Part shown: piece after piece, positions 23,544-58,917 of the stretch
Layout: the number at the start of each line of letters is the position of its first letter
Position numbering within the stretch: the stretch's first letter is position 1
Origin: Lepidodermella squamata
Lineage: Eukaryota; Animalia; Gastrotricha
Direction: 5' to 3'
DNA: 64,000 nucleotides
Assembly (NCBI GenBank): GCA_047495785.1
Contig: JBLDXI010000032.1
Span: forward strand, 3,968,001-4,032,000
Made by a program: the position numbers and the translations under genes
Notes under the pieces: generated by a model
Database searches by the model: none
What the model was told of the DNA's origin: nothing
Seen by the model: the letters and a program-made list of their open reading frames with translations, nothing else

Positions 23544-24209
23544 TGAACCAAATTACGCCAAATTAACGAGGAATCCTCATGAAATTGTCTACACGAGGAT
23601 AAATAACCTTGGCATACCCAACAATGTGGCCATCACCGGTTGGTAACTTCTAACACTTGTTCGATTGTACAGCAGATATAAAATGAATCCTTAACTGATC
23701 TAGGACATCATCGTAATAATACAGTTACCCCATGGCAAAACTTCAGACCGATTCAGCAAAAAAATCTCTGAAAAAGCTCCGTGATGAACACAGACAAACA
23801 TATTTTAGACATGAATATTTATTATACATAAAAGTATCGAGCTTGCCAAGGCTTGGACACCTCGGTAATCGTCATATTTGGGTTATCCATTACTCGATAA
23901 ACTCATAACATTATACTAATAATTTGCTTGCTCTGCTCATATACTTACGCTATTTTGAGACACGGCATGATGAAAAAATTGAGACCCGCCTTGATATAAC
24001 ATTATAATAATTTTCAGCTAAAAACAATGAGGGTGGTTAAACTGTTATAGAATAATAATTATGAATTCAGGGAAGTTGCCGTGCTGGTAAAATTTGTAAA
24101 CGACGCTTAGCAGTTGTTTCCCGTTTGATGCGTTCTAATTATAATAAACAACAATAACACAGGCCTGTTCACTGTACACCGTCTCACCTGCAACTGTTAG
24201 TTACAAACC

Positions 24210-27200: not shown

Positions 27201-27229
27201 TAGAAGGCGAACGTGTTCAGTACATTTAG
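24210..27229 (+). CDS. SLC6 Na+/Cl- amino-acid transporter (glycine/proline/nutrient amino acid type), paralog 1, 9 exons
   Basis: [13 protein letters not shown]|[23 protein letters not shown] (Gly rather than Asp in TM1), [18 protein letters not shown]. Confidence 0.93.
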
Positions 27230-27363
27230 AGAAAATCCTATATCATAACACCTACTTGTATTACGTAATTATAAAACATGCTTGTTGCGCAATAAACTAT
27301 AATCACCCGCGTTCAAAGGAGATTTTTCAAGTCAGAAGTTATTTTTGTGTTCTCAATAAAACA

Positions 27364-29570: not shown

Positions 29571-29623
29571 TTATTTCTGTCCAATTTTTGTAATAAACAT
29601 ATTATTTTACTGTAAAATGCTCG

Positions 29624-32331
29624 TTAATTTTGCATATTTTCAATAACAATCGAAACTTCTGGCTTATGGGTTTCGTTCTTTTGGTCATTATTGCAGCATT
29701 CGTCGTGTTCAAAGGTTCGATTGATCTGACTCGTACATTCCCCAAGTTCCATGACTGATTTTGAAGTCGGTATAGCTTCACCTTTGCGGTGCTTCTCAAC
29801 CGAAAAATCAACTGGCGCCGTCTGAATTTTGACCAACTGGAGGTGCTTCGCTTTAGATCGAAAGCTTTCGAGGTAGGGTCCGAAACTGGGCGATGGTGTG
29901 AATGCATGCTTGATTCTCTAAATAAAACGAAATTAGATTTGAATCTTTTGAAACTTTTGTAATTACCTCAATCGGGGATCCTTTGGCTTTGTAAATGACC
30001 CAAATTGCTGCTAACGGAATCCAAATAGCAATAATCAGGGTTATGCACCAGCCAAGTGCCTCTTCAAGCGGACTTTCACGAGGTTGATAATTAGCCCACG
30101 AGAAAACCATGATGAAAGTCATGATTCCAGGCGTGAGAATGCCCCAGAAAGTTACCATGAAAATGTGAACCAGTCGCGTTGGTAACCATGGCATCATTAG
30201 CTTCAGGTCAAAGGTGAAGTTCTTGTAGCCGTAGATCCAGCAGATTGATGTTACTTCGATAATTCCAACTAGGAAAACCGACCAAGAAACTGTATAAGCA
30301 TCAAAAACCTCCAACAATCTGGACCCGGCCTTGAAAAGAAGATTTCAGCCTAATTTAGCGGAATAAATTAAATTTACAGGGCACATGTAGGAAATTCCGA
30401 TTAGAAAGACCGTAATGCAAATACAAGCGAATGCTGCTGTTTTTCGCGCAAAATCTCGTCGCAAAATGGGAAATAAATCCATCATGGCGGTAAGAACAGT
30501 TTGAGCTTGGTTGATAAGAGTGCTGAAACCTATGCAGATGAGCATTAGGAAGAACAGGATCGAGAAGAAAACAGCGCCGGGTAGTTGGGCCAGAACTTTC
30601 GGGTAGACGATAAAAGCGAGACCAGTTCCGGCCTCGGCTACTTTCTCAACCGGTCGGTTCAAAACCTGGGCGCCAAAGCCGATAACTGAGAACACCGCGA
30701 ATGATGCGATGAATGATGTGAAGGAATCTGCGAATACGACGATGAAAGCATCTCGCAGAATGTTGCTGATAAAACATCAAACATGAAACGTTAAACTATT
30801 TTTGATCGAAAATGCCTCACTTTTGGAATTTGTTGTAAGAGGACAGGGTGATCATTCCACCTTGCCCAGCTGATAATGAGAAGAATAACTGGCCTATATG
30901 TAAAAAAATGCGGAAATGGTCCAAAAAGTTGCCAAATCCAACCTGAAGCGGCATACCATACCGAAGGAACTTTCATTTTCTCGAAATCGGGAGTTAAAAA
31001 GTAAAGAATTCCGTCCTTTGCTCCAGGTAAGGTTGCGCCGCGAATTATCAAAATTAGCAAACTGAAAATTTCAAAATTTTAAACCGGAAAAATTGTGAGG
31101 AAATAATTTTACACAACATAAGGCAGCAGAGTCGTGAAGTAGACGATTTTTCCGCTCGACTTGACTCCATTGAACAGGCTCAGGAACACTATTATCCAGA
31201 CTAAAAGCAGGCAGAGAACCAGCGGCCACTTCGGAACTCCGAAGTTTTCCCAATCGAACCCGAGATCTCCATCACCGAGCACATAATTACTAACATATTT
31301 TCCATAAAGGAACTTTCTCCCCTCATTTAAAAGATTTACTGATAATATTGTGCAGAGGCCAAGACGCTTTCAACGTTCCACTCGGTCGTCAATGTTTCGT
31401 TCCAGTATCCTAGAACGGTCGAATGGTTACGGCTGATGGATTCCTCGTCGACTAGGGTCAAGTTTTCGTAGTCGAACATTTGGTAGAATTTTCGCTTCTC
31501 GACAAACGTGGCGTTGTAACACAAGCCATCAGGTCCTCGGATGAAGTCGCGAGTAACGTTGGTATTAAGGCAGTCAAGACGCTGCATTTGACAGCGGAAA
31601 TCGGCCCAATTTGAGTAGTCACATTCATGCCATGGCAATTCGCTGGTAAATGACGCGAAAAGATAGTAGAATCCCCAGGCGATGACAATGTCGTAGTACG
31701 TGCAGATTACGAAACTTCCAACCACCATCGATATACCCACCCCAGTCACTATTGGCGCAAATTTCCAACAATGGAGAGGTCCTTGACTTGTGTATTGGCC
31801 GATGCATTGCTCTGAAATAGGAAAAATTCTATAGCGATAAATCTACCCATTCAAGTGTTACCGAACAGGATTATCGGGAATCCAACGAAGAAGCTCAAGA
31901 TCCAGTAGATTACCAAGAATGCTCCTCCACCATTTCGATAGCAAAGGTAAGGAAAACGCCATATATTACCGAGACCAACTGCGAACTATTAACATTTGGT
32001 AACTAGTCAATTAATAATTAGCAATAGATTTTTTTACGCCGACGCAGCTTAGGACGAATTCGACTTGGTTAGACCAGTTTCCCCGCTCTTCGTTCTCGTC
32101 TCCAATATGCGGGCGATAGATTCCTTTCTGGTCAGATTCCTCTATGCCATCGACAGTCTTTCCCCAAAAATAGGTTAATAGTTGGAATAGACACTGACTA
32201 ATTGTAAATGCAACCTTGATTTTCACATCAGCCGCCGATTGTTTCGTCGTTAGCTTTTTAATAGACGCTGGCAATGAGCCAATAAATTTCTGAATGCTAT
32301 TCCTCCGTTTCGATTCATTCTGGTCAGCCAT
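29624..32331 (-). CDS. SLC6 amino-acid transporter, paralog 2
   Basis: [44 protein letters not shown]; spliced C-terminus ends ENMQN. Confidence 0.93.
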
Positions 32332-32667
32332 TTGTTAGCATTTGACAAGGTGCTGATGCAGTACGAATAAGTTACTTGAACTAATTGTTTTTTGGAAATG
32401 CCTTGAGAGTTTTCGTATTTTCTTGAAGTTAAGAACTTTACACCCCGCACCCAGATAGGCTTAACAAGTCGGGTCATCACATGATTTTACGCGCCGCTAT
32501 TGTTGACCACTGCGGATAAACAACACGGCAACAAGTACTGAAGCAACAAGTGCACTTGAATCTCTCATGTAGGAATATTAATTACAATGCTAAAGGGGTG
32601 ACCAAGAAGCATTGAATTTTCATAATTTAATTACACCCATGATAATATTCTCAGTTTTATTCACTGT

Positions 32668-35000
32668 TCAAATTTCCACGTCATTTGCACTTTTAACCCC
32701 AAAAAGTTCGTTATATGATTTGTTAGTGCTCGCGGTTTCCAGGCTTAAATTGGACACTGTCGCGATGGTTACCATGGTAGACTCAGGTTTCATCCTGAAA
32801 CTGTTTGAAAGCGAGGTCTCCCTCCGAAACTTTTCCAAATAAGGTCCAAAACTAGGCTTTGGCACAAATGCAAGCCGAATTTTCTAAAAAAAAGCAAATG
32901 ACGTAGATATATTTATTAGTTGAGATTTTTTACCTGTGAAATAGATCCCTCGTTTTTAACGATGACGTAAATAGCTGTGGCAGGAATGCAAATTGCAATC
33001 GATAGGCTAATACTCCACCCTAACAGCTCCTCGTAAATATTCTCCCTAGGTTTGTAATTCACCCAGAAGAACATCATGATGAACTGAAAATGAAAGATAC
33101 AAATAAATCCACCATAATTATTGTCAAAGGCTTACGCAGAGTATACCAGGGGTTATGATACCCCAGAATGAAACGATGAACACCCGGCTGAGTTTCTTCG
33201 GAAGCCAAGGCATCATGAGTGCTAAATTCTCGGAATATTTTCGAGAGCCGTAGATCCAGCAGGCCGATAAAATTTCGATGATTCCAATAAGCAAAATCGG
33301 CCAAGACAGAGTGGAAGTATCGAAAATTTCCAGCAATCTCGGCCCAGCTGGGCAGAGGAAAGGCAAGCCGAGTAGGAAACAAACACAGCAAATGCATGCG
33401 AAGGCGATAGCTTTTCGTCCTTTATTGACTCTAAGGCCGGGAAATAAGTCTAAGGTCACCGTAAGGACAGTTTGAGCTTGGTTGAAAAGCGAAGTAAGGC
33501 CAATGCAGACGAGCATTACGAAGAAAATGATGGAAAAGAAGACGGATCCGGGAAGTTGAGATAGAACTTTCGGGTAAACAATGAAAGCAAGTCCAGCACC
33601 GGCCTCTACCACCTTGTCAACAGGCCTGTCCAGGACTGTAGCTCCGAAGCCGATAACAGAAAAAACGGCAAATGACGCGATAAATGAGGTGAAAGAATCT
33701 GCGAAAACCACGATTGCCGCATCTCTTACGACATTACTAGAAATTTCAAATGAAAAAAGTTCGAAAATTATTGGAAAATCTCACTTGTTAAACTTGTTGT
33801 ATGAGGCCAAGGTTATCATTCCTCCCAGCCCTGCTGATATTGAGAAGAAAAGCTGACCTGCTGCTGTGTACCAAACGGAAGGCGACTTCATAAGCTCGAA
33901 ATTCGGCGTGATAAAATAGCGAATTCCATCAATAGCTCCAGGCAGGGTTGCTCCTCGAACAATGAGAATAATTAGGACAACGTAGGGCATCAACGCCGTG
34001 AAATAGATCGTCTTGCCGCTTGTTTTGATGCCATTGAAGAGATTGGCGAAAACGATGATCCAAACTAGAAGTAGGCACAAAACCAAAGGCCATCTCGGGG
34101 TGCCAAAGTTGGCCCAATTAAAGACAGTTTCGTCATCGCCAAGAACGAAATTGCTATAAATCAATTAATGAGAATTGCCAATTTTTTTAGGTTTAATCTT
34201 ACTGAAAATATTGAGCTGAAGCCAATACGCTTTCGACTTTCCACTCTGATGTCAGAGTTTCATTCCAGTAACCAACAACAGTCGAAACATTCCGATTTAT
34301 ATCGGTCGCGTTGTCGATGAAAGTAGCGTTGTAGCACAAGCCATCTTGACCGCGCAGCAAAGTTTCGGTTTCATTAAGGCAGCTGACTTTTTTCATCTCA
34401 CATCGGTAGTCGGCCCATGTCGAATAGTCGCAGTTCTGCCATGGCAGCTCGCTTGTAAATGAGGCAAATAGGTAGTAGAATGACCACGCGATGATAATGT
34501 CGTAGAAGATGGCAATTAGGAAGCTTATTGTTACCATGGCAACGCCAATACCAGTTACGATTGGGGCATAATTCCAACAATGGAGTACGCCCAAGCTTGC
34601 GAACTGGCCGATACTTTGTTCTGTATGATAAAATAATTTCAATTATTAAATAATTATTTTTCTTTGATTTTACCGAATAGAATCACAGGAAATCCAACAA
34701 GAGCACTAAGGATCCAGTAAATGATTAGGAAAGCCCCTCCTCCGTTCCTGTAGCACAGGTAAGGAAACCTCCAAATGTTCCCAAGTCCAACTGCAAACTA
34801 AACAAATAATTTAAATATTGTTAAGATTCGTTGTCCAGAATATATCCTACCCCAATGCAACTAAGAATGAACTCAGCTTGGTGAGCCCAATTCCCTCGAT
34901 TTTGGGTTTCCTCTGCCACGTCCTTTTCAGCCACCTTCGGATCGCATCTCTTGGTTGATGATGAAACCAAAGCTTTAAGTCGCTGCCATAGACGAGTCAT
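32668..35000 (-). CDS. SLC6 amino-acid transporter, paralog 3
   Basis: [26 protein letters not shown] and the same downstream motifs. Confidence 0.93.
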
Positions 35001-35786
35001 TATAGAATTTTGTTCGGAGTTTCAACTACTTTATGGCCAAACGAGAGCGGAACCCAATGACTCTTGGGGCAAGGAGTGTTGGTCTATATAGGCCCAGGTG
35101 CATTTCGAAACGTAAACATGTTGCTCCGGATAGGTATCTTATGACGTATTGACTGTTTGGTAAAACAACGTTTTCATCGTTAAATTTGTGCTCGACGTCA
35201 TTAGCATTGTTGCTTCATATAGGATATTACGATAATTATATTATATAATTGCGCATATGCCAAGTTCAAAATAACAAAAGTAATTGTTTACGAGTTTGAT
35301 GACACTGTTACCTTCCAACGCCGCAATGTACTGGATGCGGGTGCGAGAGAGGCTCACTTAGTAAATCATCATTAAAAATCTACACGACAGGTGACATCAT
35401 CGATGATTCCCTTGAAGACATTCAGCTAATAAGCATGGCCGTTGAGCTTATTATAACTGCTGGCATCGATGCACATAAAAAAATCGTGATTAAAAATACC
35501 CACGCATCAAACAGCCACGCGCTTATGGGTCAAATTGCCACCTCACATCGTCATCAATATTGTCTTGGTAAAAATTTTATGCACGAATATGTTGCTTCAG
35601 ATTTGTACGCGGTAATAAAGATGAGATGATTAGCTGATAATTGGGCACAAATTCAAGCCATTCCACTTGATTAGCGGGATCCAGCCATAATTACCAGTAT
35701 CAGTGATAAAGACAAATTTTTGCATTTAAACTTGCGAGACATTGCAGCTTTTTAAACTTTCTAATATTTTTGAGGCAAAAGCAACG

Positions 35787-38141
35787 ATGCGGCTCTTTAT
35801 TCATCTCATCTTTATGTTGTGTGCAGCAGCAATAAATGCTAAAGATTCACAGATAAAGCCAAATAAGTTGTCGATGCTAGTTATGATCGCTTTCACTGGC
35901 GCAGAGCCTCGCGATGGGAAACTTTGCCGAGCTGTATCTGAAATGCTGGCAGAAACTGTCAATAAATCGCCGGATATTCTGCCCAACTACCACATCGAAC
36001 TGGACTTCCAAGACGAGGGTCCCAACGCATTTTACGTGCCGAAACGAGCGGTTGACTTCAGTAGAAAATTTGACGATCCAGTCAATAAAAATTTGACCCA
36101 AAGCCTCGTGACAGTTGGGCCGAATTTCGCGACGGGTTGTCAAAGGTATGGCTCCATGGTTCATGAGCTCGGTATGGTGACAATAGCAACGGCTTGCCTG
36201 CTACCAACAGTCACAGCGAATCGCCGATATTACCCGAATTTGTATCGGCAAAGAATATCAGGTGAATACGCTGCATATCCTCGTCTTCGATTTATCCGAG
36301 ACATCGGAAAATGGCAGGAAGTCGCTGTGTTTGTCTACGCTGGAAACTGGGTGAACTATCTCATCGGCCTCGAGTTCGAAAAGGCGGCTAGAATCTACGG
36401 TACACAGCTGTCATGGTTCAACGCAGCTGTTGATCCGAGTGATGAAATTATGGCATCTCTTCGTGACAGCAAAATTCGCGTGATTATTGCTGAAATGGTC
36501 GATGTTAGTGTTCTGATTCGATTCATGTGCCAAGCCTACAAATTTGGCCTGACTGGTGGGCGATACGTTTTCATCGCTACAACCACGTCTCTTACCGACC
36601 CGTACCGCCAACCTGAGGTTATTTCACCCGGCTGCACGAGGGACATACTAGCTGAGCAGTCGAAAATCACATTTTGGATTGGGGCGACATTGTCGGCCTT
36701 CGAGAACAACGGCCCTGTGACGAAATTGGGGTATGATCTAGCGGAATATGAAAGGCTGTTCGATTCAAGGACGAATACGTCGAGGACCCCCGACTACGAC
36801 CGTCGCCATGTTTGCCACGACAGTCTTTTCCAAGCTATTATGACTCTTGACCTGGCCGAGCGCGAGTTGGCGAAGGCAAATTTGTCATTGAAATCCGTTC
36901 GCCGCGATTTTTCCACCGTTGCGCGAATTGTAAATAAAAGCGCGGGCATGGTGGATTATGTTGGCCTTCGCGCTGGTTGGTCGCATTATTCTGACCGGCT
37001 TGAAATGGACTATGAAACCCAGGTTATCCTGCAATGGTCTCCAGCTACATCGTTCACGCCGATTTTCAAGGTAACACGTCCGAAAATTCAGGGAAATCTC
37101 CAGGCGATAAACGACCTTGCATCTTATTCTCTAACGAAAATGAACGACATTATGTGGCTGACAACGTCGAAATCTCCGCCGAAAAACAGGCTTGAAACTC
37201 TTGAAGTACCGGTTGAAATAACCTCTTTTGCTGGTTTTGTTACAACTGCTGTAGTTGCCGGCCTTCTAGTCGCGCTTTATACCATAATTTTGGGTTTGAC
37301 CTTGATTTATCGAGACAAATTAGCAGATCATCTACCTCTTAGTAGGACGATTCTTGTTGTGGGAAGTTGTTTGCTTACAGTCTCAACCCCAGGATTCCTC
37401 GGACCCTCCGATGTTATTCTCTGTGGGGCCAAAGTTTTCGCAGTTGTTGGCTTGAATTTAATCAACAGTTACCTGGCTGCTCGAGTTTTATTCATTCTCT
37501 TCGATGGTTCGGTAAAAAATGCAAAAAAACTGCAGAAAAACAAGGTAACTTCGTCGAAGTACGTGTCGAATCTCGAAAATTCGAGTATCGAGAAATTGCC
37601 AATCGATCAAAAGAAATGTATCAAGCGTGAGCGAATCATTTCACTTGCTTGTCTGACTTCGACTGCAATCGTGGGGCTTTTACTGATTTTCTGGAAAGTT
37701 TTCGATCAATCTCAGATTGTTTCAAAAAATATGTCAAGCTACTATGACGAAAGCAACGACGTGATACTGGACTATCATGTCGTAGTGTGTGAATCTGCCT
37801 ATGAAACTTATTGGTTAGCTGCTTTGCTTTCGATTCAAATCTTAATACTAGCCCCGGCTTGTTTTGTCATATATGAGCTGCGCAAGTCGACCCTCTCTGC
37901 TGAGCTAGCTCAGTTCAAATTGGTGGCGCTAGCAATCATCAACCAAGTGACGATGTTACTAGGCTTTGTTCTGGTGATCATCGTTGTCAGTGACATACCA
38001 TCGCGGCAAATCTTCTTGGCAATCGGCTCTTTGATGTTGTCTCTTCCGCCTGTGGTTTTCCTTTTTTCGTCTGATATTACGAAACATAAGCACGCTTTGA
38101 ATCAAGTTACATCTTTAGTGGATATTCAAACTATGAATTAG
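35787..38141 (+). CDS. Intronless class C GPCR (divergent GABA-B-like: Venus flytrap plus 7TM, no Cys-rich domain)
   Basis: Signal peptide, VNKSPDILPNYHIEL, RRYYPNLYR, FMCQAYKFGLTGGRYVFI, seven hydrophobic segments, VVCES before TM5, short tail. Confidence 0.85.
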   Translation: MRLFIHLIFMLCAAAINAKDSQIKPNKLSMLVMIAFTGAEPRDGKLCRAVSEMLAETVNKSPDILPNYHIELDFQDEGPNAFYVPKRAVDFSRKFDDPVNKNLTQSLVTVGPNFATGCQRYGSMVHELGMVTIATACLLPTVTANRRYYPNLYRQRISGEYAAYPRLRFIRDIGKWQEVAVFVYAGNWVNYLIGLEFEKAARIYGTQLSWFNAAVDPSDEIMASLRDSKIRVIIAEMVDVSVLIRFMCQAYKFGLTGGRYVFIATTTSLTDPYRQPEVISPGCTRDILAEQSKITFWIGATLSAFENNGPVTKLGYDLAEYERLFDSRTNTSRTPDYDRRHVCHDSLFQAIMTLDLAERELAKANLSLKSVRRDFSTVARIVNKSAGMVDYVGLRAGWSHYSDRLEMDYETQVILQWSPATSFTPIFKVTRPKIQGNLQAINDLASYSLTKMNDIMWLTTSKSPPKNRLETLEVPVEITSFAGFVTTAVVAGLLVALYTIILGLTLIYRDKLADHLPLSRTILVVGSCLLTVSTPGFLGPSDVILCGAKVFAVVGLNLINSYLAARVLFILFDGSVKNAKKLQKNKVTSSKYVSNLENSSIEKLPIDQKKCIKRERIISLACLTSTAIVGLLLIFWKVFDQSQIVSKNMSSYYDESNDVILDYHVVVCESAYETYWLAALLSIQILILAPACFVIYELRKSTLSAELAQFKLVALAIINQVTMLLGFVLVIIVVSDIPSRQIFLAIGSLMLSLPPVVFLFSSDITKHKHALNQVTSLVDIQTMN

Positions 38142-38761: not shown

Positions 38762-41700
38762 TCACACATCCCTGCAGGATGGCTTGTCAAATAGGCATGG
38801 TGTAGTGTCCGCGCCCAGTTGCCGCAACTGACGAACAACGGTGAAGCGTTTATCCTGGGACGCATATTGAATAGGCAGAAGGCCGTTCCTGTCATCTTGC
38901 GCATCCACTATTGCTTTTATAGCGGCACTATTATCGCCGGGGCGATTTTCAAGTTGTTTCAGCAACGCCGTTGCAGCGTCTCTGCCGTCAGTTCGCCCAG
39001 GCTTGATTCCATCTCGCCGCATCGCAATAGCCAGAGGCGTGAGGCCATACGAGTATCGGTCGTTCATTAAGCGGAGAATGACTCGCCAATGTTGGTTTTC
39101 AAGCAACGCCGTTACAGTGTCGCCGTCATCGCGGGCCGCGGCCATCATGAGGGCAGTCATGTTGTTTCGACGGTCTCGCCGTCGCAGGTTAACGCCACCT
39201 TCTAACAGCATGCGAACTACGCTGGTTTGGCTGTTGTTAGCTGCCAGCATTAGCGCCGACATGCCGTCTTTATCGATCAGGTCAGGTGGTTCCAACCCGT
39301 CGCGGAGAATTCGAGCTATTTGCAAGTAACCGGCCTTGGCAGCTATCATAAGAGCCGTAGTGCCGTTCACATCCTGTTGATTGATGCCAGGATTGTTCAT
39401 GCTGAGAACGACCTGAAAAAATAACAAAAAACTATTATTCCTATAGTGTCGGGCATCTGTAGAGCTGTTCAAATACTTGTGTCCAAATGAACCTAAATTA
39501 TTGCCAGAGTTGGGAAAAATTAGGCAAAAATCAAATTTCGCCGTTCCTTTATGAAGCGTAATAGGAACGAAATCAATTTTAGTTTCTCCTTGATCACCCA
39601 ACCAGAGTGCTCGAGTGGTTTAAGAGGTCAGACTTAAGATCTGATGGGAGTAATCCCGCGTGGGTTCGAACCCCACCTCTGGTAAAACAATTTTTTCCCT
39701 AAAATTGCTTAGTTATAATTCTTGTAAACCTGAAGGGCTGATAAGCTATTGATTTCTGCTGCCGCCATCAGCGGGGTACGGCCTTCATTCGTTTTCGCGC
39801 TTGGATTGGCACCCAATGCCAGCAAGGCCGAAGCCGTCTGCGTTTGCCCGGCTCGAATTGCGTAATACAAGGCCGTCCGGCCAGAAGCATCGCGATCGTC
39901 GACATTTGCACCATTATCACTCGCTAAATTCAACACCGGGTAGGATGCGCCGTTTAATGCCGCTATCATGAGAGCGGTCGCATTGTCCTCAGATCGCGCG
40001 TCAACAGCGGCTCCTTTGCCAATCAGCAGCGCGCATATCGCAAATGCCGTATTATTATTAGATATCGATGCTGCCGAGAAAAGCGGCGTCTCGCCTCTCA
40101 AATCCCTGGCATTAACATCCGCACCAGCAATAATTAACAAGCGAGTTTTTTCACTCGAATTCGACGCATGAAACAGAGCTGTGCGTCCCTTCGAATCGCG
40201 AGCGTGCAACGACGGGGAATGATTGAGAAGCAGTCGCAAGACTTTTGTGCTGTTATTAGTTGAGTTAGATGCCCACATTAGCGGGGTCATGCCGTTCTCA
40301 TCAGATGCGTCAACGTCAGCGCCGGCTGCTAACAGTTTTTCAGCTGATATATCTGCATTACCCGCCGAACTGTTAGCGACACGCATCAATGCACTGATAT
40401 TTCGGTGATCGGCAGCATTAACGTCAGCACCGGCTTTGATAAGCTCATCGAATAGATCTGGAGAATTCGAGTCCGCCGCCCTAATTATCGCCGATTCTTC
40501 CTTTCGATTTTTCGAGTTGACGTCGGCGCCGTTTCGAAGCAACACCCTGACAACGCTTCTGGAGACCGAGACATTTCTCAGGGCGACTAACAGAGCTGTC
40601 TCGCCGCTGAAATCGGAGGCTTCAATGTCCGCACCAGCGTCGATCAAACATCGCGCTGTTGCAGCGAGACCGAACTTGGCCGAGTACATTAGAGGCGTCC
40701 AACCGAAGCGGTCCCTTGCGTCGATTGTAGCCCCGTGATCGGCGAGTAACGCAGCGACTTCAGCTTGTTTAACGTCGGTTGTACCGCGGGCAGCATGAAT
40801 CAGCGGGGTGGCGTCGTCGTGATCTTCTGCGTTTATTTCGACACTTGAATTCAGCAGTAGAGAAACCGCGTCTCCCAGCCCAAATCTCGCTGCTATATGG
40901 AGAGGCGTTAATTCAGTGTTTAACGTTGCTTCATTGACAGAGGCGCCTTTCTCAATCAATGCCTAAAATAATATTTCGGAAAACATTTCGCTAGAAAATG
41001 TAACTCACTTTCAATATTCCAACTTTCGGCTTGCTGGCCGTAAGACTTAACAGCACAATTCCACGGCCAGCTTTGCTACGTCTCGTCGCATTGGCGCCGC
41101 GTTCCAGCAGCAAGCGAGTTAAAGTTTCGTGGCCATTCGCAGCAGCCAGCATCAGCGGCGTCGTTCCTTCGCCATCAGGGTCGTCAACCGCGGCGCCCAT
41201 ATCTAACAGCTTCCTTGTAATGCCAATTTCCTCGCCGTAAGCGCTCACGGCGGCGATCAAAGGTGTCGTGCCTGGGTAGACGTTGTCATCAGGCTTGTTA
41301 GGACTCGCCCCGTTTGAAAGAAGCAACATTGTGCAGTTGTAATGGCGGTTGATGATCGCAGCTGTAAGGGCTGATTGGATTGATAATTTAGCCCCTTGCT
41401 TGAGAAGGTTAGCGACTATTTCATCGAAACCCCTAGCAGCAGCGTCGTGTAGAGCTGTCGCTCCAAATTTGCTGGAGATATCGAGTGTAGCGTTATTTTT
41501 CCCCAGTAGATATTCAATCACTGACGCATCCCCGAATCGAGCTGCTGCTATCAAAGCTGTAACGCCATTTACATCTTGGACGGTAAAATCGGTTGGGCTG
41601 CAAAATCAAGCACTCATAGAAAGACTCGGATTTCAGAAAGCGCAAAAACTGAATTACGAAAAATTAAATTATCGAAGAATGTCCTAAAATAGCGATGCCG

Positions 41701-44358
41701 TAAATCAGCTACGGATCATAAGAATAAGCTATTGAGTTCTGAGAAACAAACCCTGCTTCGGCCAGAGCAGAAATAGCGTCTCGACCAAGACCAGATTCGG
41801 CGGCGAGAATTAGAGCATTAGCTCTGCGTTGCTTATCGCGAATGTTTATGTTAGCGCGACCGTCTAGCAGCAGCGCCATCACCCGTTCATTTCCACTAGC
41901 AACAGCCATCATCAGTGGCGTCCGCCCGAGATGGTCTGGGGCGTCAACGTAGGCTCCAGCTGAGAGCAGAAATTTCGCAATCATCTGTTTGCGATCACCC
42001 AGCGATTGATCACGGTTGGCTGCCAACAACCACAGAGCAGAACGACCCTGATTGTCTCGAGTTGCCATATTCATTACTGCCGATTGGACGAGAAATTTAA
42101 CAAGCCTGTAGTCAAGCGCTTCGACGGCGTAGTGAAGAGGTGAAAATCCTCGATCATCTGTAGCGATAACCAGCTGCTTCCATAGACTTTCTGGCGATAT
42201 TGACTTCATGAATTTTGCAACAGTTACGTTTCTCGTAGTTCGACATAAATAGATCAGTGCTGAGAACCAATTTTTATCATTTTCATAATTTTCCACATGC
42301 GTTTTTTCTGGCATAAACCTGCTGTATATCAGTTTAATTATTTCAGTATTGCTCGTTTCTATCGCTGTTTGCAAAGGCATTTGTTGCCGCCAGCAGTCGA
42401 CATTATCCGACATATAGGATTTAAACATAATTTTCAAACACAATCTGCAGTTCGATGCAGCAGCCAGTGACAAGGCACGACCTTTACACTGCTCAGTGGC
42501 GTCAAACGTTCGCGATAGCTTATGAACTAGCCGCAAATGTTCACCGAGAACGGCTAGCTCCAACGGCTGGTATGATGAGCCATTCCAGTTGAGGGTAATA
42601 TTGGCACCAGCATCAAGTAATAATCTAGCTACATCCCGTCTTGACGACTTTTTGTCACAGCTGAATAACGCTACAAGCTGCAGACAAGTTGCCCCATCGT
42701 TGACCGATGCCTTTTTCTGACAAACGCCCTGGCTAGTGTAGCGGCGGTCATCGCGCCAATCAGGGTCGAAAATTTCAGAGGATGCGTTGATTTTCTCAAT
42801 CATTTTCCTCACTTTAGTAATGTTAGAGACTTTACAAGCGTCCATCAATTCGTGGTAGAGATCGAGTTGGGTGCAGCGACCCGGCTCCGTCCAAGATCCG
42901 TTATTTTTCTCGAGGCAGGTGATATTACTGGGGTAGAGAGGGTGGAGACGGAAACCGGGCTTACACTGCAAAGTTAGGACTTCTGAGCCAGGAGCAAAAT
43001 AGCCATGCCTTACTTCAGGAACCGGCCCGCAATCGAGTTCAGGTTTAGCTGTAGTCGATTTTTGAGTAGTCGGTAATGCGCTTGTGGTCACCTTGGTGCG
43101 ACGCGGTGCATCAGGCAGGGTGGCTGTTACCACACGTGAATAACGAGCTATTGTTTGGTTTATCCACCTCACCGCCGAGCAAACTCTAGCGTAGACACCT
43201 GGCTGATTGTAGAAGCCACACGCTGCGCCGTAGGATACAACGCCGACGACGTGGCTTCGATTGCCAGCTAGGCACATCAGGGGCGATCCGCTGTCGCCGC
43301 GGCAGGTGTCCAGACCCGGCTGGGTCGAGCCGGCGCAAAGTTGAGCGGCGCTCACGTTGCGATACCCGGTCAACTGCTGGCACAGGTCGCGTGAATACGC
43401 GGTTAATTGAACTTTTTTAAGGCCTTTCGAAATCGCCTGACCGCTCGGCGTGAATCCCCAACCGCCAGCCGTGTACTCGAGGCAGCCGTCCGATTTCGGA
43501 TTTGTCCGCTGCTCGTCGGTTTCATCAGCGTCGCAGTAGAGTAGACCCGTTGAAGGAAGGCAAACAGGGCGGACGTAATCGTCGTAGTACATAGGATAGG
43601 TCAACTTGACGAGAGCCAAGTCGTATTGATAAGTTGTATCCGAACTATTGTATTGGGGGTGGATGAAGTAAGTTGATGTCGTAGTTTTCTGTTCATGCCG
43701 CTCCTCCTCAGGCGCCGACAAATTTGTTCGACCCAATGCAACGTTAATCCTAAAAAAATAGAAAATTGAGCTAAAATGGGGGAATTCCTCGATATACATA
43801 CGCAACAAGCTTCGAAGATGAGACTAAGCAGTGAGCTGCAGTTAGAAGCCACTCATTTGCTATAATGCTGGCCCCACATGGCCGGTAATTAGAGGCAGCC
43901 TCAAATTGCATATCCAACTTAGCCATCCAAGGAATTTGCCCTTCGTACGCGTATTCCATGTCGAAATTTCCTAGAGAAGAGGGTGGTCGTTTGGAGACCT
44001 CTCCACATTGATTCTTCTCGACTATATTAAAAGAAAATTTTCACTTCGCCGAAATAAGTGGGTGGCTGTGCGTACATCTTTGTGGCTCACAGCCGCCTAT
44101 AGCTGGGCTGAATCGCCCCTGATCGTTATCGCCTATAAAGCAAACACTTCGGGCAACTGTTCCTGGTGCTAGAATATATCCAGGATGACAAATTAGATTG
44201 ACTGATACGCCGCCGTTGACTGCGCTGCCTTCAGGCAACTCCTTTCCATTGTGCAGGAGCAGCCGGCCCTGGGAAATTGCAGGGATTGGACACCCTGATG
44301 CTGAAGTTCGACGGGCGGTTATCAATACTAGAGACGCGAACAAAAGTTGGCTAATCAT
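38762..44358 (-). CDS. Secreted Sushi-trypsin protease-Sushi-ankyrin repeat (~30) fusion, ~1657 aa (exons 44358-44076, 44021-43802, 43749-41752, 41597-41009, 40962-39730, 39412-38762)
   Basis: All five GT-AG introns keep the frame. TAAHC, DLAL and DTCRGDSGSP triad. The protease C-half, second Sushi and first ankyrins lie in one uninterrupted exon. Confidence 0.85.
39601..39684 (+). tRNA. trnL-TAA: tRNA-Leu(TAA), copy 6, antisense inside intron 39413-39729 of the protease-ankyrin gene
   Basis: Identical cloverleaf; T6 terminator. Confidence 0.97.
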
Positions 44359-45584: not shown

Positions 45585-46301
45585 ATGAACAAGTTTTACA
45601 TGCTACTGTCCTTACCCACCAGCTTAATTTTTTGGTTATGCATTACTCATCAAGGTTAATTTCCTATATAGTAGCTGCTGTAGCGATGGCATAATCATGA
45701 TTCTGCGATGTAGGTCTAGGCTTGGAATGTGCTTATGGTGTACCCGGGAATTCCTATTTCCTTTCAAACGGCACGAGCAGCTCGAGCAGCTCAAATAGCT
45801 CAAATAGCACTGGCTCAGCAGTTAGCGGCCTAGTTTGCAACACCGAATATTACTGTTATCGAGTAGGAAATTATAATTATTTTGAACTATTCTATCTAAT
45901 GCTTTATTCAACAGCTTCAAACTACAGTGAGTGGTTTGGTAAGCCAACTCGGCCGGCCATTCAACTATAATATTTACGCGAATCAGACAAATACTACGAC
46001 ACCGTATACAGGGTACGTTCCACCTGAAGGCCCTCTCAATTCAATTTGGGTGACCTACATGGGATGCATCAACAACTGTGATCGCATTTACCAAGTTCTG
46101 CCGAATAATGTTAACGTAACGTACGGCTACTACTCGAAGCAGGTCTGCTGTCGAGACTCAAATTTGTGCAATTTACCTAGCGGTGGCGCGGCTGTTGATT
46201 CCGGCTATATAGTCTCATCTTCACCAAAAATTGGACCTTTCATCATTTTAATAATTTTAATAATTTTTTTTAATCTCGCATTTTCAAATGAGAATAGCTA
46301 A
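45585..46301 (+). CDS. Ly6-like protein F with expanded Ser/Thr-rich loops (3 exons)
   Basis: LECAYG..(S-rich)..VCNTEYYCYR|..(insert)..MGCINNCD..VCCRDSNLCN plus GPI-type tail. Confidence 0.8.
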
Positions 46302-47010
46302 ATAATAGAGTAAAACAGAACTTATCATTGTTTTAAAAATGAATAATTGATTAGAAGTTTGAACTGAGCTGAACAAGCTAGGGTTGTTGCAAAGATCTGT
46401 CCTATTGCAACAGTGAATTTTGGTGAAGAAACCGAATAAAGGCTGGGCAGATTCAGCCGTAGGTGATTTTCTTAGCAGTAGAACGTCGCAGATTTCTATA
46501 CATCCGAGTTCAAATCTTGGCAATAGGCTAGACGGTGTCGTTGTAGGTATTGCTGTTGGTCGAGGTGTAGTTCTATTACTTGAAAATGTAAAGTTCTGAC
46601 GAACGGTTTGTCGTGGGGCTGTTGTAGTTGGTCGGGTCAAAGGTGCAGTTGGCGGCGTAGGCGGAGTTATTCTAATAGTTCCAGTTCCAACAGTGGGCGG
46701 GGGCCTTGTGGTAACTGGTAGAGTGAACGGCGACGGTCTGTTTGTTGGGAAAGTAGGCCCAGAATTGGTCATAGGTCTGAGAATCCGGTTTGTTTGGATC
46801 TAAACATAAAAATTCCTCAAAAAATGTGATTAATTTTCAAATTGAAATACCCGATAGCAAAATTTTGCAGATGTGCAGGTATTTCCGTCGCTCGTCGCAC
46901 AAATCAGGCCTTCAACTTTGGAAAAATCACCGCTATCCACAGAAAAAATCTGCTCAAAATTTACCTATTTCCGTTATTGGCAAAATAGCCATAATTTTTA
47001 ATACCTGCAT
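46284..47010 (-). CDS. Ly6-like protein G with Thr/Pro mucin-like insert (3 exons)
   Basis: LICATSDGNTCTSAKFCYR|..T/P-rich..LGCIEICD..HCCNRTDLCN plus tail. Confidence 0.8.
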
Positions 47011-48695: not shown

Positions 48696-51650
48696 TCATT
48701 TTCTCCGCTTTGTTTTCCGAGTGCTAGGGCAGCATGATTTAGTCGCCGGGCCAAATTGGCTCAGCGCGATCGGGAGAACGATGCACATGTATGAAAAACC
48801 GGTCAAAACTGATAAGAGAAATGTTTTAAAAAACGCGCGAAGAATTGCGTTGCCTGATGTTGAAGTCGCTATGACGGCTAGGAACGTCCCAACTGCAGCT
48901 GGGCCTGTCTCGCTGATGACAAGAGCCATGAGACGACATGCCTTTTTCGTCCGAATTTCTGCTCCAGTTAAACGGCGCTTTGGGGAATGCTCTTCAACCT
49001 GAATTGTTGTAAACGTGTAGATGCAGTGGCAAATGTAATCGGCTGTTGCGCCGATAGCCATCATTATGTAGACGAGAACAAGTGGGTCAAGGCGGCAGCC
49101 CCATAAAAGCAAACCAGCCAGGGTGTGCGTGATAATTGCAAGTGATGCAAAAACCATCCAAAATAGGCAAATCGGATTTCTGAAAAAGTAATTAAATTAA
49201 ACGGGTCAACAGCATTCTGAATAACTAACGGGATCATGACCATAGACGTGACGACAGTGCTCGCTACGGTTATCAGGGCAAAGTAGACGAAGGTGTAGGG
49301 CAACTCTACGATTTGCGCATAAATCCTGAAGAATCGCAGCGCATCGCCCATGTAAATTTGCAAATCGGCCGATTCGTATGATTTTCTGAACGTTTCCAGC
49401 TTAGCGGATAAATCGGCGCCTCTTTCCATGTCCGCCATGTCTTTGATATGGAAATTTGTTACGAAAACAAGACGCTCGTTGTCTTCGCCGTCGGTGGTTA
49501 AAACAGGCCGTAATTTCTCATTTTTCACCCGATTCGCAACCAAGTCAATAGCAGTTTCTAGACTAACAGCCGGTACTACATCTTTCCCGTAATCACGAAT
49601 AGGCACATTGTTGAATCGATCGTCCCAGAAAAATGTCTTGTGTACTGTGACGCGTTCCGCAAGTTCAATGACTTTCCGGCGAATTTTTGTAAAATTTCTG
49701 CCGTATTGCTGCGTGGTCAGATTGAACATGACCTGTAAAACTTGGCCGTCCGAAAAATCGCTGAAGTACTTGTGATAATTTTTGACGAAATCATGCGCGT
49801 TCGATTTGTCGTGAGCAAGATCTTCCGGCCGAAATCCGCTTTGCAGTTGAGTTCCAATTACGACAGCCGATCCAATTAATAGAGAAATAACTACCAAGGC
49901 AACTATCGATCTTGAGAATGGATGCAGCATTATTGGAGCAACTTTTTGTTCAATAAATTTTTCAGCTGCGGTCTCAGAAACTTCCTCGGCTGATGTACTG
50001 TTCTCAATTTTGGGATTCCCATACGTGAAAAAAATATTCCAGAGCACCGAATGGTTTTCTAAATCTGGTCAAAATTATACAAATTATCTGCGAGAGATTT
50101 CTAATAAAATTACCTTCTTTCTTTCGCCGTGAAACTTTGAGGCAAATGAAAAACACGGAATGGCGCTCATTTTTCTCCCATGAATCGGAAAAAGCTAATG
50201 TAGCCATGAATACCGTCATCTGAAGCCAGAAATCGAACGCCAGCGTCCATAACGCAAAGTTGGAATAGTTTTGTATAGCTGGGTATGGCACCGCAGTGCC
50301 GATGCAAAAATCCAGGATCGTCATAACAAAGGTCACAAATATCGAAGTCCCTCCCTCTTGTAGGGTTATTTTCGTACGCTCCTCACGCGGCAAATTCACG
50401 CTTGTCCGATGCCAGTTACCCATTAATATGAACATGTCGTCAAGACCGATGGCTAACAAATATACGTAAAGCCCGATAATTCAGATTATTGACAGGTTTT
50501 TACCTAAAGCCATCAGTGGGACAGGAATTAGATAGGTGTAGAACATGTCGCCTATCCAAAATTGGGCCCCGAAGCCGGCCAAACAAGCCAGGCCTGTGCA
50601 GCTTATTCCAGCTATGGCACACCAAGGTTTCGAATTCAAAACATCGGTATGTATCGATCCGATCAAAACCCAAGCAATCACGCACAAGAAACTGACAGCG
50701 ATTTTGGGCAACTCGCGAAAAATGACAGCGAAAAACTCGTCGTACAACTGCATGTAAATTTGCCAATAAACTGATATTGACTTGTAGCGATCACTTGTCG
50801 ATTTCAGCTTGTTGCTAAGGGACTTCTCCCGAGACTTTACCTCCGGCGTATTGGGTAGCATGTATTGAAACATCATGGCTTTAACAGATTTAATTTTCGA
50901 ATTGTAGTTGTTGCTAGGATCTTCCCGAACTACTCCGCCAAGCAAATTTGTGAAAATTGTATCTGGAGGTGGAGCTTTATCTCTGTAAAAAATTGTTGGG
51001 ATCGCCATTGAGGGATAAGTAACCAGTTCGAAGAATGACAGAAGATTGCCCGTGCTTTCTAGCACTGATGATTTTTCGTCGCCGAAAATTTCGAAATGCA
51101 CTCGTTTGAGATCCCAAACGTCGCAGCACAGGCCATCATTACACCCGAGAGCCTCTCGAACTACGTCGTTCAGCTTCATAATATCGAAAAAGGATTGATT
51201 GTTGATCAAATCGGCTGAGCGCCCGGTTACGATGACTGATTCGATTCGCCACGTTTCCACCCCGTCTCGGCATGGATCGCCGATGTCGAATTTTGTTAAA
51301 TTTACATCTTGAAATAACGGGAAGCTTTTGATCGGATTACCGGTTCGCGACGTGTTCAAAAATTTATTCATCATCCTCGCATCGTCTTCGTACCTGCTCC
51401 CAGTTGAGAAAAATTGATCGACTAAGCCATCAGCATCTGTTGGGATTTTTATTCGGTATAAACCAGCTGCGGATACAAATGCAGTAACGAGGCCAGCGAT
51501 GAGAAAAATGATGGGATATTTCCCTAAAATGTAGCCATAGCAACCGAAAGCCCAGGCTACAACGTCGGGGAGAATTCGATAGGAAAGTTTAGGGAAATTG
51601 GGTAATCCAAAATTAGCCTTAGTTCCATCACCATCGCTCGCTGACGGCAT
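48696..51650 (-). CDS. Patched-domain (PTCHD3/Ptr-like) sterol-sensing RND protein, paralog 1
   Basis: IGLDDMFIL, EGGTSIFVT, AIGATADYICH; multi-TM pattern; three short introns. Confidence 0.88.
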
Positions 51651-51836
51651 TATTTAATCGTAAGAAATGAAGCGTGATGCCATGAAATGCTAAGCCTTTG
51701 TTACGCACATATTATTGAAACAATAGAAAGTCATAAAAAACTGCTGTTTACTTTCTTTTGTTGAATAGCATACAGGGCGTTAAACGCAGGTCTAGTTTTT
51801 TATTATATCACATCGAATTTAAAGTTTATCAAAAAT

Positions 51837-54800
51837 TTAAAGTTTCCTTGTCATCGACCGTTGATGGTGGTGGTGGTGGTGATGATGATGTTGCTGAGTT
51901 GTGTGTGAATGCTGGCTTTTAACGACCTCAACACTGCTTAGATCATCGCCTGGTTCAGACTCACAGCAGGTTTTGCTAACAGGTCCAAATTGGCATAAAA
52001 CAACGGGTAGAACCACGCACATGTAAGTAAATCCGGCCAGGATTGATAGGAAGAAAACTTTGAAGAACGACCGAAGAATCGCGTTGCCCGACGTTGATGT
52101 CGCGATGACAGACATAAATGTCCCGACTGCGGCGGGCCCGGTTTCCGTTACGACTAGAGCCAGGAGGCGGCACGATTTTTTATAACGAATTTCAGCCTGG
52201 GTCAGGCGCCGTTTCGTTTTCGGCGAATATTCTTCAACGTCTATTGTCGTAAATGTGTAAATACAATGGCAAATGTAGTCGGCGGTGGCGCCAATTGCCA
52301 TCATGATATAGACCAGGGACAAAGGGTCGAGACGAACGTCCCATAGCAGCATCCCAGCCATGGTGTTTACAATAATCCCAATCGAAGCCATGATCATCCA
52401 AAATAGGCAAACAGGGTTTCTAGAAACAAAAAGTAATGAATCAAAGCAACGCCAAAATCGGATTCAACTTACGGAATCATTATTACAGCAGTAATGGCTG
52501 TAGCTGCCAGGGTGATCAGGGTGAAGTAGATAAATACGAATGGTAATGAGACAATTTGCGCGTAGATTCGAAAAAATCGCAAAGCGTCGCCCATGTAAAT
52601 TTGAAGGTCAACCGGGTCTTCGAAAGCTTTGCGAAACGTTTCCAACTTTCTCGACAGCTCCGCGCCATTATTCATATTTGTCATTCCTCTAAGTTGGAAC
52701 GTTGCCAAGAAAACGAGTCGCTCATCACCGGCATCATCGATTATTAGTCTTGGCTTATAATTCACGTCCTTGACTTTGTCGGCGATGATCGAAATAGCCG
52801 TGTCGAGATCAGTCTTAGGACCAACATTATGGGCTAAATCTCGAATTGGTATCAAGTTCAGCCTGCTATCCCAGAAATAATGCTTATGCACGAGTATTTG
52901 ATCGGTGAGTAAAACGACGCGTTCGTAAATGTGATCGAATTTGCGTTCGAAAGGCTCCGTCGTCATGTTGAACATGACCTGCAGTTTTTGGCCCTCGGTA
53001 AATTCGGCGAAATCTCGCTGGAAATATTTGACAAAGCCATGCGCGTTGGATCGATCATTCGCAAAATCTTCCGGTCTAAATCCGATCTGTAGCTGGGTTC
53101 CAATGACAACGCCAGAGCCGGCTAAAAGTCCTATGGTTACGATGGCGATGATTGCCCGAGATATAGGGTGAAACATGACTGGCGCAATCTTTTCCTCGAT
53201 GTATTTCTCAGCAGGAGGTATTTCAACCTCATCCAAGATTTCACTTGAAATAATTTGCCGAGAAGAGCTCGATGAAGTTTCCTCGCTGATGACGGCCAAC
53301 TGGGGATGATGAGGAATTTCCGAACTGGTTTTTGCGACTGGGTTACCATATGTATTGAAGATTATCCAGCAAAGTGATCGCTTTCTCAATTGCTTCCGGG
53401 TCCTTTTTGTTACAATCTGACAAGGCAGAATAGAGTGCTTTTTATTCTTCTCCCAGCTATCAGACAGGGAAAGCGCGGCCATGAAGACCGTCATTTGAAG
53501 GAAGAAGTCGAAAGACAGCGTCCAAAGAGCGAAATTTGAGTAGTGCTGAATTGCCGGGTAAGGAATCGCCGTGCCGATACAAAAGTCCAAAATTGTCATC
53601 ATTACAGTGACGAAAATCGAAGTTCCACCCTCTTGAAGGGCGATTTTCGTCCTTTCCTCTCTAGGCAGCTTCACGCTAGTTCTGTGCCAAGTTCCCATCA
53701 AAATGAACATATCATCCAGCCCGATGGCTAACGAAATTTCATTGATTTTTAGATCTTATGAAATTTGAACATCGCTTACCTAAAGCCATGAGAGGGACAG
53801 GTACTAAATAGGTGTAGAATTCATCCCCAATCCAAAACTGAGCTCCAAAACCGGCTAAGCAGGCCAATCCAGTACTGCTGATACCAACCATGGCACACCA
53901 CGGTTTCGAGTTCAAAGCATCGGTATGTAACGCTCCGATCCAGACCCAAGCAATAACACAGAGGAAAGTTACAGCAATTTTAGGAACTTCGCGAAAAATG
54001 ATCGCGAAAAACTCGTCGTAGAGTTGCATGTAAATTTGGTAGTAGGCCCCAATCGCTTTGTACTTACTCTCGGCAGCATCCATGACTCGTGACATCCGCT
54101 TCTCGGCCTTTCTAGTATCAGCCGTATCAGGCATCATGTATTGAAACATCATCGACTTGACAGATTGTATCTTTGCATTGTACAAATTATTGCCATCGGT
54201 TGTTTTTACTCCGCCTAATAAGTTGGTCAGGACAGTTGGAGGCGGGGGCGTTTTGCCTTTTTTAACCAAAGCAGCAGGTATAGAGGTTGCAGGAAACGTC
54301 GCGAATTGGAAAAATGAAATCAAAGCACTACTGCTCTGAGCAATTGGAATGTCATCTGCTCCGAAAATTTCGAACTGAATGCGCCGTAGGTCCCAAACAT
54401 CGCAACAAAAGCCGTCATCACAGCCCAGGGCAGTTCGAACAGCGTCATTCAGGGATAAAATGTCGCTGAATGACTGATTGTTCAAAATATCGATGCCACT
54501 TTTGCTGGTAACGATAACCGACTCGATTCGCCAGGTTTCAACGCCGTCACGGCACGGGTTGTCCGCGTCAAACTGGGTCAAATTGATGTCTTGAAATAAC
54601 GGGAAGCTTTTTATCGGATTTCCAGTCCGGCTCGTATTTGTGAACCTGTTAATCATTATCGCATCGTCCTCATAACGACTTCCCGTCGAGAAAAATTGGT
54701 CGACTAAAGCGTCGGCATCTGTCGGAATTTTGATGCGATGAAGACCAGCAGCAGCGACGAAGGAAATGACTAGGCCAGTTGATAGGAAAACAACCGGATA

Positions 54801-54953
54801 CTTGCCAAGGACGTAGCCGTAACATCCGAAACACCAGGCTACGATTTCAGGCAGAATGCGATATGACAGTTTCGGAAATTTCGGCAGGCCGTAGTTTGCT
54901 GTCAAAGGTTTGCTGGTGGCGCCATGGGTTGGCTCTTCAGATTGCGCTGACAT
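51837..54953 (-). CDS. Patched-domain protein, paralog 2 (poly-His tail)
   Basis: Same motifs; clearly paralogous to 48696-51650. Confidence 0.88.
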
Positions 54954-55654
54954 GCTTTTATGTAGAGCACGGTGAATTAAAGTTTTTATTCAGTAGCGCT
55001 CCAGTAAGCGTTTGTGCTTTAAAGTGAACACATAACTACAAAGGAAAAAGGGACCAAATAAACGTGATGAAAATTCTCGAAGCTTCTCATGGATTAAATC
55101 TCAAAATAAGCTTCAGGAAAGAGGTCAACTTTTTCAATCGAATAGAAAATAAAGGGGAAATAGATAGGAATTTAAAAAAAGTCTTACGCTGGACCTCAAA
55201 TGCCTAACAGGTAACTCCTTGAACAGGTTTTATTCTATTAACAACTACTTGGTCTCGCACTGAAATGATTAAAAAAATTAGTGGACAATCGAGGGAACAG
55301 CGCGTAACATTATTTTCTCATGTCAAAAAACAGAACAATTCTGGCTGGAATGAAAGGTGCGCGCAGTTATGTGCAAACTTTTTGTCCAAGACGCCGACAC
55401 TCAGGCAAAAAGTTTTTCAGCAAAAAGCATGTGCATGAAACGAGAAAAAATCTGTGCTTACGTTACAGCGGTAGCAAAAGACATTACTGAGAAAAAACAA
55501 AACAAAACAAACAAGTGTGTTTGTACGTATGTGAACCATTAAACCAGGAAGCGGACAATGAATAATCTACCTATTTTTTGGCTGGCATATATGCCTGACC
55601 TGAATTTGCAAAAATTACAAAACTATTGTCCCAAAGAAAAAAGGGTCTGTATAG

Positions 55655-58797: not shown

Positions 58798-58917
58798 GGT
58801 ACATGTGAGGGCTATTTTTGAAAAAGATGGTGGACTTTTTCAGTGCCTTCATCAGCCAATTTGTTCCCAAGAGAATAAACTGTCATTTTTATCAATTCAT
58901 TTTATTCAGTATTTTCC

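Follow-up and report, generated by a model that had tools for sequence, protein, structure and literature searches.

In the complement-type proteases (MASP, C1r/C1s, factor B/C2 and Limulus factor C), CCP (Sushi) modules stand beside a trypsin-type S1A domain; in MASP, C1r/C1s and factor B/C2, CUB-EGF-CUB or VWA modules plus tandem CCPs lie N-terminal to the protease. Ankyrin arrays of animals are cytosolic, the usual secreted exception being the latrotoxins, which combine an N-terminal pore-forming helical domain and a latrotoxin C-terminal domain with ankyrins that bind a receptor of the prey or host. Single-chain tPA has an intact catalytic triad, carries a Lys156-Asp194 salt bridge, does not need the Ile16 insertion and uses accessory modules to bind a surface or substrate (PMC13194640 and PMC5773063, both in excerpt). 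The excerpt of PMC13194640 also describes a non-canonical ion pair at residue 194 in C2a, states that an acidic residue at 194 is retained in the few proteases known to do without N-terminal insertion, and reports that PRSS23, with the triad present and Ile16 and Asp194 both lost, is inactive. Here we describe a predicted gene of the gastrotrich Lepidodermella squamata that joins a CCP-flanked S1A protease to a long ankyrin array. The gene lies on the minus strand of a window of 64,000 nt (contig JBLDXI010000032.1, positions 3,968,001 to 4,032,000), and all coordinates below are positions in this window (Table 1).

The predicted protein resembles MASP, C1r/C1s and factor B/C2 in that CCPs adjoin a trypsin-type S1A domain, and differs from them in having one weak CCP before the protease, one after it, and ankyrins at the C-terminus. 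With the latrotoxins (PDB 7ptx, 9go9, 7pty) it shares a long ankyrin array of generic ankyrin similarity, whereas its CCP-protease N-terminus and the lack of a pore-forming region set it apart. Pfam scans of the protein found no CUB, EGF, VWA or lectin domain and no latrotoxin family; by its predicted domain content, the protein is neither of the MASP/C1r/factor B type nor a latrotoxin. An earlier note on this DNA, made from the sequence alone, had raised a toxin as one possibility, which the Pfam result leaves unsupported. We considered that the protein might be a secreted toxin or a component of a feeding or defence secretion, its ankyrins binding a receptor of prey or host in the manner of the latrotoxins. 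Among animals, latrotoxins offer the familiar case of ankyrin arrays that are secreted. In the excerpt of PMC4758249, widow-spider venom-gland transcripts also commonly encode ankyrin domains and serine protease domains, which are listed separately. A toxin is nonetheless very unlikely, given that exon 5 matches ankyrin-1 (E 4e-68) far above the latrotoxins (4e-38 or weaker) and that no pore-forming or transmembrane segment was found.

We built the gene model from five minus-strand open reading frames (ORFs) in 38762-44358 and a short exon 2. The window has a eukaryotic character with short GT-AG introns, and the five introns of the gene, all GT-AG, are 54, 52, 154, 46 and 317 nt long. In the window, the open frame of the model is 4974 nt long, and the spliced product has zero internal stops. 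Pfam placed Trypsin (E 2e-32), Sushi (E 5e-5, above the cut-off) and ankyrin families within the single 704-codon open frame of exon 3, with further ankyrins in exons 4-6. The junction of protease, CCP and ankyrins is thus intra-exonic, in agreement with the earlier note, which had argued that the fusion was no gene-model merge and had listed a signal peptide, a CCP, an S1 domain, a Thr-rich linker, a second CCP and about 30 ankyrin repeats. All of these were recovered, the first CCP weakly and the signal peptide by hydropathy only. Introns 3-5 interrupt ankyrin repeats and preserve their register, which makes a separate downstream ankyrin gene unlikely. The start ATG lies immediately 3’ of the acceptor-like sequence TTTTATAG, and the 1.2 kb searched 5’ of the ATG held no candidate for an upstream phase-0 coding exon. 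Four of the seven start codons inspected in the window (44358 (-), 20289 (+), 6219 (-) and 8471 (-)) follow an AG in T-rich surroundings at a distance of 0-2 nt, a pattern that spliced-leader trans-splicing or an intron in the 5’ untranslated region would give.

DNA of the gene was found in two sequencing runs, X1 and X2, and paralogs are visible through the run contigs alone. One gap-free 1250-nt contig of X2 spans aa 401-817, from CCP2 into the ankyrins, with 37 differences from the window (a copy of about 97% identity). A second X2 contig, 86% identical, spans aa 328-525, from the end of the protease into the second repeat, and its listed indels net 0 or 3; this in-frame copy is likely a paralog. 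Further X2 contigs of 81-90% identity cover parts of exons 2-6, and the indels listed for them are all in frame or inside intron 4; these pieces presumably all belong to one paralog. Misassembly at the junction, which the earlier note had wanted checked, and a gene-model merge are ruled out by the exon 3 frame and by the single X2 contigs that bridge the junction in the 97% and 86% copies. Because the fusion is found in at least two diverged copies, it would be older than their split. Parts of X2 are identical to the window, and the run is probably from another individual, since it differs from the window at sites covered by one contig alone.

The architecture appears to be new, as the earlier note had supposed. 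No protein carried both a protease and ankyrins among the 154 matches examined (59 to the protease part and 95 to the ankyrin part), which were the best 150 of 96,198 matches from 1.84 billion representatives plus four word-index matches, and no ankyrin family was listed for the word-index matches in sets of 4 and 30. In metagenomes, none of 95 candidates was confirmed to have the same architecture, no ankyrin or Sushi match stood beside the protease in the 80 protease loci retained out of 225, and the protease was found at none of 67 bacterial ankyrin loci. Such searches are biased towards long multi-repeat proteins or depend on shared words, and a distant relative could escape them. Searches of open PMC and bioRxiv brought up no account of this architecture. 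A cluster of 53 bacterial proteins in the ESM Atlas has the ankyrin and trypsin folds in one chain; its members differ in being about 480 aa long and in lacking a CCP, the score of 0.89 (below 0.9) makes the match a lead only, and the likeness is presumably convergent, not homologous.

The nearest relatives of the protease, by score and by tree path, are two ENA proteins, P0133 and P0038. P0133, a signal-bearing protease with 5 Sushi units, is the best single-domain match (163 bits; the runner-up has 143). P0038, with 15 Sushi units, has a dead protease domain that has lost His57, Asp102 and Ser195. In a tree made by a quick method from 90 rows, the query, P0133 and P0038 form one group (SH-aLRT 87); 2 of 91 matches, one short and one a near-copy, were left out of it. 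Like the query, both have a signal-like N-terminus and an S1A domain followed by W..PGRC-type Sushi units, and CCP2 reaches 42% identity to the Sushi units of P0038. They differ in having neither ankyrins nor a CCP before the protease, and P0133 has a near-canonical K-VLLG activation site. Since the nearest relatives are secreted proteins with a protease and a Sushi array, an ankyrin array has probably taken the position of all but the first unit of a Sushi array. P0133 and P0038 themselves apparently belong to a family that has no name as yet, in which secreted S1A proteases or pseudoproteases carry 5 to 15 Sushi units at the C-terminus. The best full-length ankyrin matches are generic (29-35% identical), the named ones being from insects and fungi, and all NCBIfam rows fall far below the cut-off. 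An endosymbiont origin of the ankyrins, another idea of the earlier note, found no support, as the bacterial ankyrin matches are likewise generic (25-50% in best segments) and include no close donor.

The catalytic features of the protease are preserved. His158, Asp211 and Ser321 correspond to His57, Asp102 and Ser195, in TAAHC, DxAL and GDSG motifs, and Asp315 (Asp189), Gly342 (Gly216) and Gly352 (Gly226) give a predicted specificity pocket of the Arg/Lys type; the intact triad and Asp pocket reported earlier are thus borne out. Gly193 and the oxyanion-hole residues are retained, Asp320 corresponds to Asp194, and Lys279 falls at what we take to be residue 156. The core cysteines Cys143, 159, 291, 306, 317 and 345 (predicted pairs 42-58, 168-182 and 191-220) are present, as are Cys100 and Cys231 (Cys122), which correspond to the 1-122 pair. 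An Arg/Lys15-Ile/Val16 activation site was not found in either register that we tried: positions 16-19 read N113-F-D-M by ungapped count from solved mature chains and S110-L-G-N in a gapped alignment. The loss of the usual R-IVGG site described in the earlier note therefore holds, and the domain is assigned to S1A by its catalytic features, minus the activation-site feature. In our comparison of residues 16 and 156, for which 72 of 90 homologue rows could be anchored, 3 of the 69 homologous domains with Ile/Val16 have Lys at 156. A single-sequence fold of the protease with the proximal repeats had a pLDDT of 35, too low to place Lys279. The cofactor-type activation that the earlier note had suggested gains a concrete handle from the putative Lys156 and the retained Asp194.

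Two other explanations of the protease were weighed. The fusion might be a conventional zymogen in which a non-trypsin activator cuts before Leu111, so that a hydrophobic N-terminus acts as Ile16, with the ankyrins merely localising the enzyme. The retention of Asp194 and of Cys100 and Cys231, the pair that holds two-chain forms together, is compatible with such a cut; L111-G112 can be aligned to V17-G18, and several homologues have non-basic residues before Ile16. Leu111 is, however, two residues off the canonical register, and the chain continues with Asp115, Met116 and Glu117 where nearly all homologue rows listed have small residues after Ile16, and we regard an unusual cut as unlikely. 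Alternatively, the domain may never reach an active form and may act together with the CCPs and ankyrins in binding or as a cofactor. The lost Ile16 site, the dead protease with a Sushi array in the relative P0038 and the precedent of PRSS23 (PMC13194640, in excerpt) point in this direction. The triad, Gly193, Asp194, Asp189, Gly216, Gly226 and the core cysteines are all retained here, unlike in P0038, and the acidic residue at 194 is what the known exceptions to Ile16 insertion keep (PMC13194640, in excerpt); a pseudoprotease scaffold is accordingly improbable in our view. The window contains a second secreted trypsin-family gene, at 20289-21359 (+), of the ordinary type; its R-IVNG site is canonical, its triad motifs are intact, and it has 28% identity to the fused protease.

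The evidence for a secretory route came from three sides. The N-terminus contains the most hydrophobic 9-, 11- and 15-mer of the whole protein, and we inferred the signal peptide from this hydropathy, not by a dedicated predictor. No transmembrane helix is predicted, because the highest 19-residue hydropathy window across the protein reaches 1.40, which bears out the absence of a membrane segment claimed in the earlier note and speaks against a cryptic one. CCP1 is divergent (Pfam Sushi E 0.17, 12.7 bits, below the 20.7 cut-off), and it matches a Sushi of P0038 pairwise with E 6e-5. The ankyrin array contains 21 N-X-S/T sequons, compared to 9.2 +/- 2.7 in shuffles (z 4.3), and the excess held when residues were shuffled locally, within windows of 10-66 aa (p <= 0.002), and in aa 700-1657 alone (16 vs 7.3 expected). 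Among 95 control ankyrin proteins (mean z -0.7), one reached the z of the query and none its ratio, and 27.6% of the Asn residues of the query array lie in sequons, compared to 7.0 +/- 4.2% in the 95 controls (maximum 19.4%). The turn between helix 1 and helix 2 carries a sequon in 6 of 24 anchored query repeats vs 109 of 2343 control repeats. We rejected the view that the ankyrin consensus or the local composition creates the sequons as a side effect, as only 3 of the 21 use the consensus Thr/Ser and the excess survives the local shuffles. The sequons, which the earlier note had called many, thus support secretion by their excess, which, with the signal-like start and the lack of a transmembrane helix, gives good indirect evidence that the array would pass through the endoplasmic reticulum. 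The hydropathy and sequon statistics fit a secreted glycoprotein, and the protein is likely secreted and N-glycosylated.

The tandem 33-residue helix-turn-helix repeat was found by Pfam, by a hidden Markov model (HMM) made from the protein’s own repeats, and in a structural model. The HMM recovered 25 repeats with iE < 1e-3 and 2 weak ones. An AlphaFold2 model of aa 462-833 (mean pLDDT 80.7) had 10 helix pairs, 5 of them missed by the HMM, and best matched DARPins, AnkB and MIB1; aa 462-700 would therefore also be ankyrin-like, and with the added helix pairs the predicted total is 30-33 repeats, in line with the earlier count of about 30. Cys makes up 3.8% of aa 464-700 vs 0.5% further on, a level reached by 3 of 95 control ankyrin spans, in keeping with the extra cysteines noted before in the first repeats. 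The repeats average 29% alike to one another, which argues against a recent internal expansion and against a sequon excess made by one copied unit.

We further analyzed the variation between the window and the X2 contig of 97% identity, using the 30 of its 37 differences that were listed. The changes are synonymous in 4 of the 5 codons affected in CCP2, whereas in the ankyrins 17 of 22 are nonsynonymous (17 vs 5; Fisher p 0.03, or 0.11 without the patch described next), a pattern that would fit diversifying selection or, equally, relaxed constraint. Eleven of the 30 differences fall within a patch of 41 nt, a clustering that none of 5000 random placements attained. The patch lies where helix 2 of repeat 5 ends and in the loop to repeat 6, and 7 of its 8 changed codons are nonsynonymous. 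In run X1, one low-depth contig joins exon 5 directly to the last 11 nt of exon 4, an 11-nt word unique in the window, which gives a weak hint of splicing.

We propose, tentatively and at somewhat below an even chance, that the gene encodes a recognition protease made as one secreted, glycosylated chain, with an ankyrin arm for target binding and an enzyme stabilised through Lys156-Asp194. In this proposal, the ankyrin array would have taken the place of the C-terminal Sushi array in a lineage-specific protease-Sushi family and would have become suited to secretion as its surface turns gained sequons, its proximal repeats being Cys-rich. The protease would rest in a zymogen-like state until the ankyrin and CCP modules dock on a substrate or surface, which would stabilise the active form through the Lys156-Asp194 pair, as in single-chain tPA, and the active protease would then cut the bound target after Arg or Lys. 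The comparison with tPA has its bounds, as the homology is limited to S1A, tPA has finger, EGF and kringle modules and a cleavable Arg15-Ile16, and the bridge here is predicted from sequence. Vampire-bat DSPA-alpha1 is a comparable single-chain enzyme. As in the earlier note, we only infer an immune role and a part of the ankyrins in binding a target or in gating; defence or self/non-self recognition would be the likeliest setting, with digestion, reproduction and matrix remodelling as alternatives. A more specific version, in which a glycosylated, allele-variable ankyrin recognition arm was moved into the secretory pathway by an ankyrin-for-Sushi swap and switches on the attached trypsin-type protease without a cut, is doubtful.

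A number of observations weigh against the recognition-protease proposal. The controls for the sequon counts are 95 ankyrin-rich search matches whose cytosolic location is not established, and two of them exceed the query in helix-turn sequons. Apart from the query, Ile/Val16 is missing in two rows only, a polyprotease domain and a dead enzyme, and PRSS23 shows that a triad without Ile16 can be inactive, though Asp194 is also lost there (PMC13194640, in excerpt). Lys156 need not be compensatory, since residue 156 is basic in the relatives too (Arg in P0038 and in P0133, with its near-canonical site). The tree grouping has a support under 95, from a quick method and with long branches. The X1 contig, hand-read in the frame of the gene, has a stop a few codons before the exon junction, and X1 also contains genomic DNA. 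The 17:5 ratio of nonsynonymous to synonymous ankyrin changes corresponds to a site ratio of 3.4 and looks neutral. Finally, a single contig (depth 105.6) of the near-identical X2 copy has 2 extra letters at 40265 in exon 5; the resulting frameshift near aa 1263 would lead to a stop about 44 codons further on and leave about 23 of 33 repeats. Together, the patch and the frameshift would fit a variable recognition arm with length variants as well as decay of the X2 copy.

The X2 frameshift and the neutral-looking ankyrin changes would also fit a weakly constrained chimera, in which a short form alone matters, one that stops in intron 3 or at that frameshift, for example, while the distal ankyrins decay or stay unexpressed; the frame of exon 3 does stay open into intron 3, to a stop at 41709. 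The 4974-nt open frame, the diverged copy kept in frame at 10-19% divergence, the sequon excess through aa 700-1657, the mutual divergence of the repeats and the lack of a Met for about 90 codons in exon 4 all make this quite improbable. If the recognition-protease proposal holds, the 30-repeat array with its gained glycosylation sites would represent an ankyrin fold refitted for extracellular work, and sequon excess may provide a sequence signature for finding other extracellular ankyrin proteins. An enzyme active without the Ile16 switch would extend the short list of natural cases (tPA, C2a) by one, and a long repeat module that sets both target and activation would be a natural counterpart of a DARPin-targeted protease.

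Table 1. Features of the predicted protease-ankyrin gene and its surroundings (window positions).
Feature	Position	Strand	Basis or remark
Whole gene	38762..44358	-	6 exons, 1657 aa; spliced model with GT-AG introns
Exons 1-6	44358-44076, 44021-43802, 43749-41752, 41597-41009, 40962-39730, 39412-38762	-	
Predicted signal peptide, aa 1 to ~21	44296..44358	-	hydropathy only
CCP/Sushi-like domain 1, aa 23-90	44089..44292	-	four Cys, divergent; sub-threshold Pfam match
S1A trypsin-type protease, aa 100-368	43149..44007	-	split by intron 2; Pfam Trypsin, alignments
Non-canonical activation segment, aa 109-116	43957..43980	-	without Arg/Lys-Ile/Val site
Thr/Ser/Pro-rich linker, aa 369-407	43032..43148	-	9 Thr in 38 residues
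CCP/Sushi domain 2, aa 408-460	42873..43031	-	E 5e-5, above cut-off
Six degenerate Cys-rich ankyrin-like repeats, aa 462-700	42153..42869	-	AlphaFold2 model, structure matches
Variable patch, aa 644-657	42283..42323	-	end of helix 2 of repeat 5 and loop to repeat 6
Canonical ankyrin array, aa 701-1657	38765..42152	-	exons 3-6; introns 3, 4 and 5 each within a repeat, register kept
AATAAA	38701..38706	-	~55 nt 3’ of stop codon
tRNA-Leu(TAA) gene	39601..39684	+	inside intron 5, opposite strand to gene

The tRNA-Leu(TAA) gene in intron 5 is one of six with identical sequence within 30 kb (9561-9644, 12199-12282, 14504-14588, 21410-21493, 22621-22704 and 39601-39684), which have a few upstream bases and a downstream T-run in common. 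At the intron-5 site the summed contig depth in run X2 is about 3000 vs 80-230 nearby, which suggests many further copies beyond the six. The neighbouring genes are of several kinds. Two small Cys-rich ends with hydrophobic tails, on opposite strands at 45585-46799, adjoin the 5’ end of the fusion gene, and we take their motif to be of the Ly6/three-finger type. An intron-free gene resembling class C G-protein-coupled receptors (ANF_receptor plus a hydrophobic C-terminal half) lies convergent with the fusion gene at 35730-38141 (+). An intron-free ORF of 457 aa at 4846-6219 (-), with a signal-like start and a hydrophobic C-terminal tail, is possibly a beta-propeller; it had no Pfam match, and its best PDB match was no better than E 0.49. 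For one neighbouring SLC6 exon, the top matches are unnamed proteins at 56% and 48%, and matches with a name, from molluscs, stand at 42-43%. Local tandem expansions run across 24200-34700, 18800-29600, 48700-55000 and 56800-64000, and comprise at least three SLC6/SNF transporters, two RCC1-BTB genes and several Patched/sterol-sensing and Cys-loop channel pieces.

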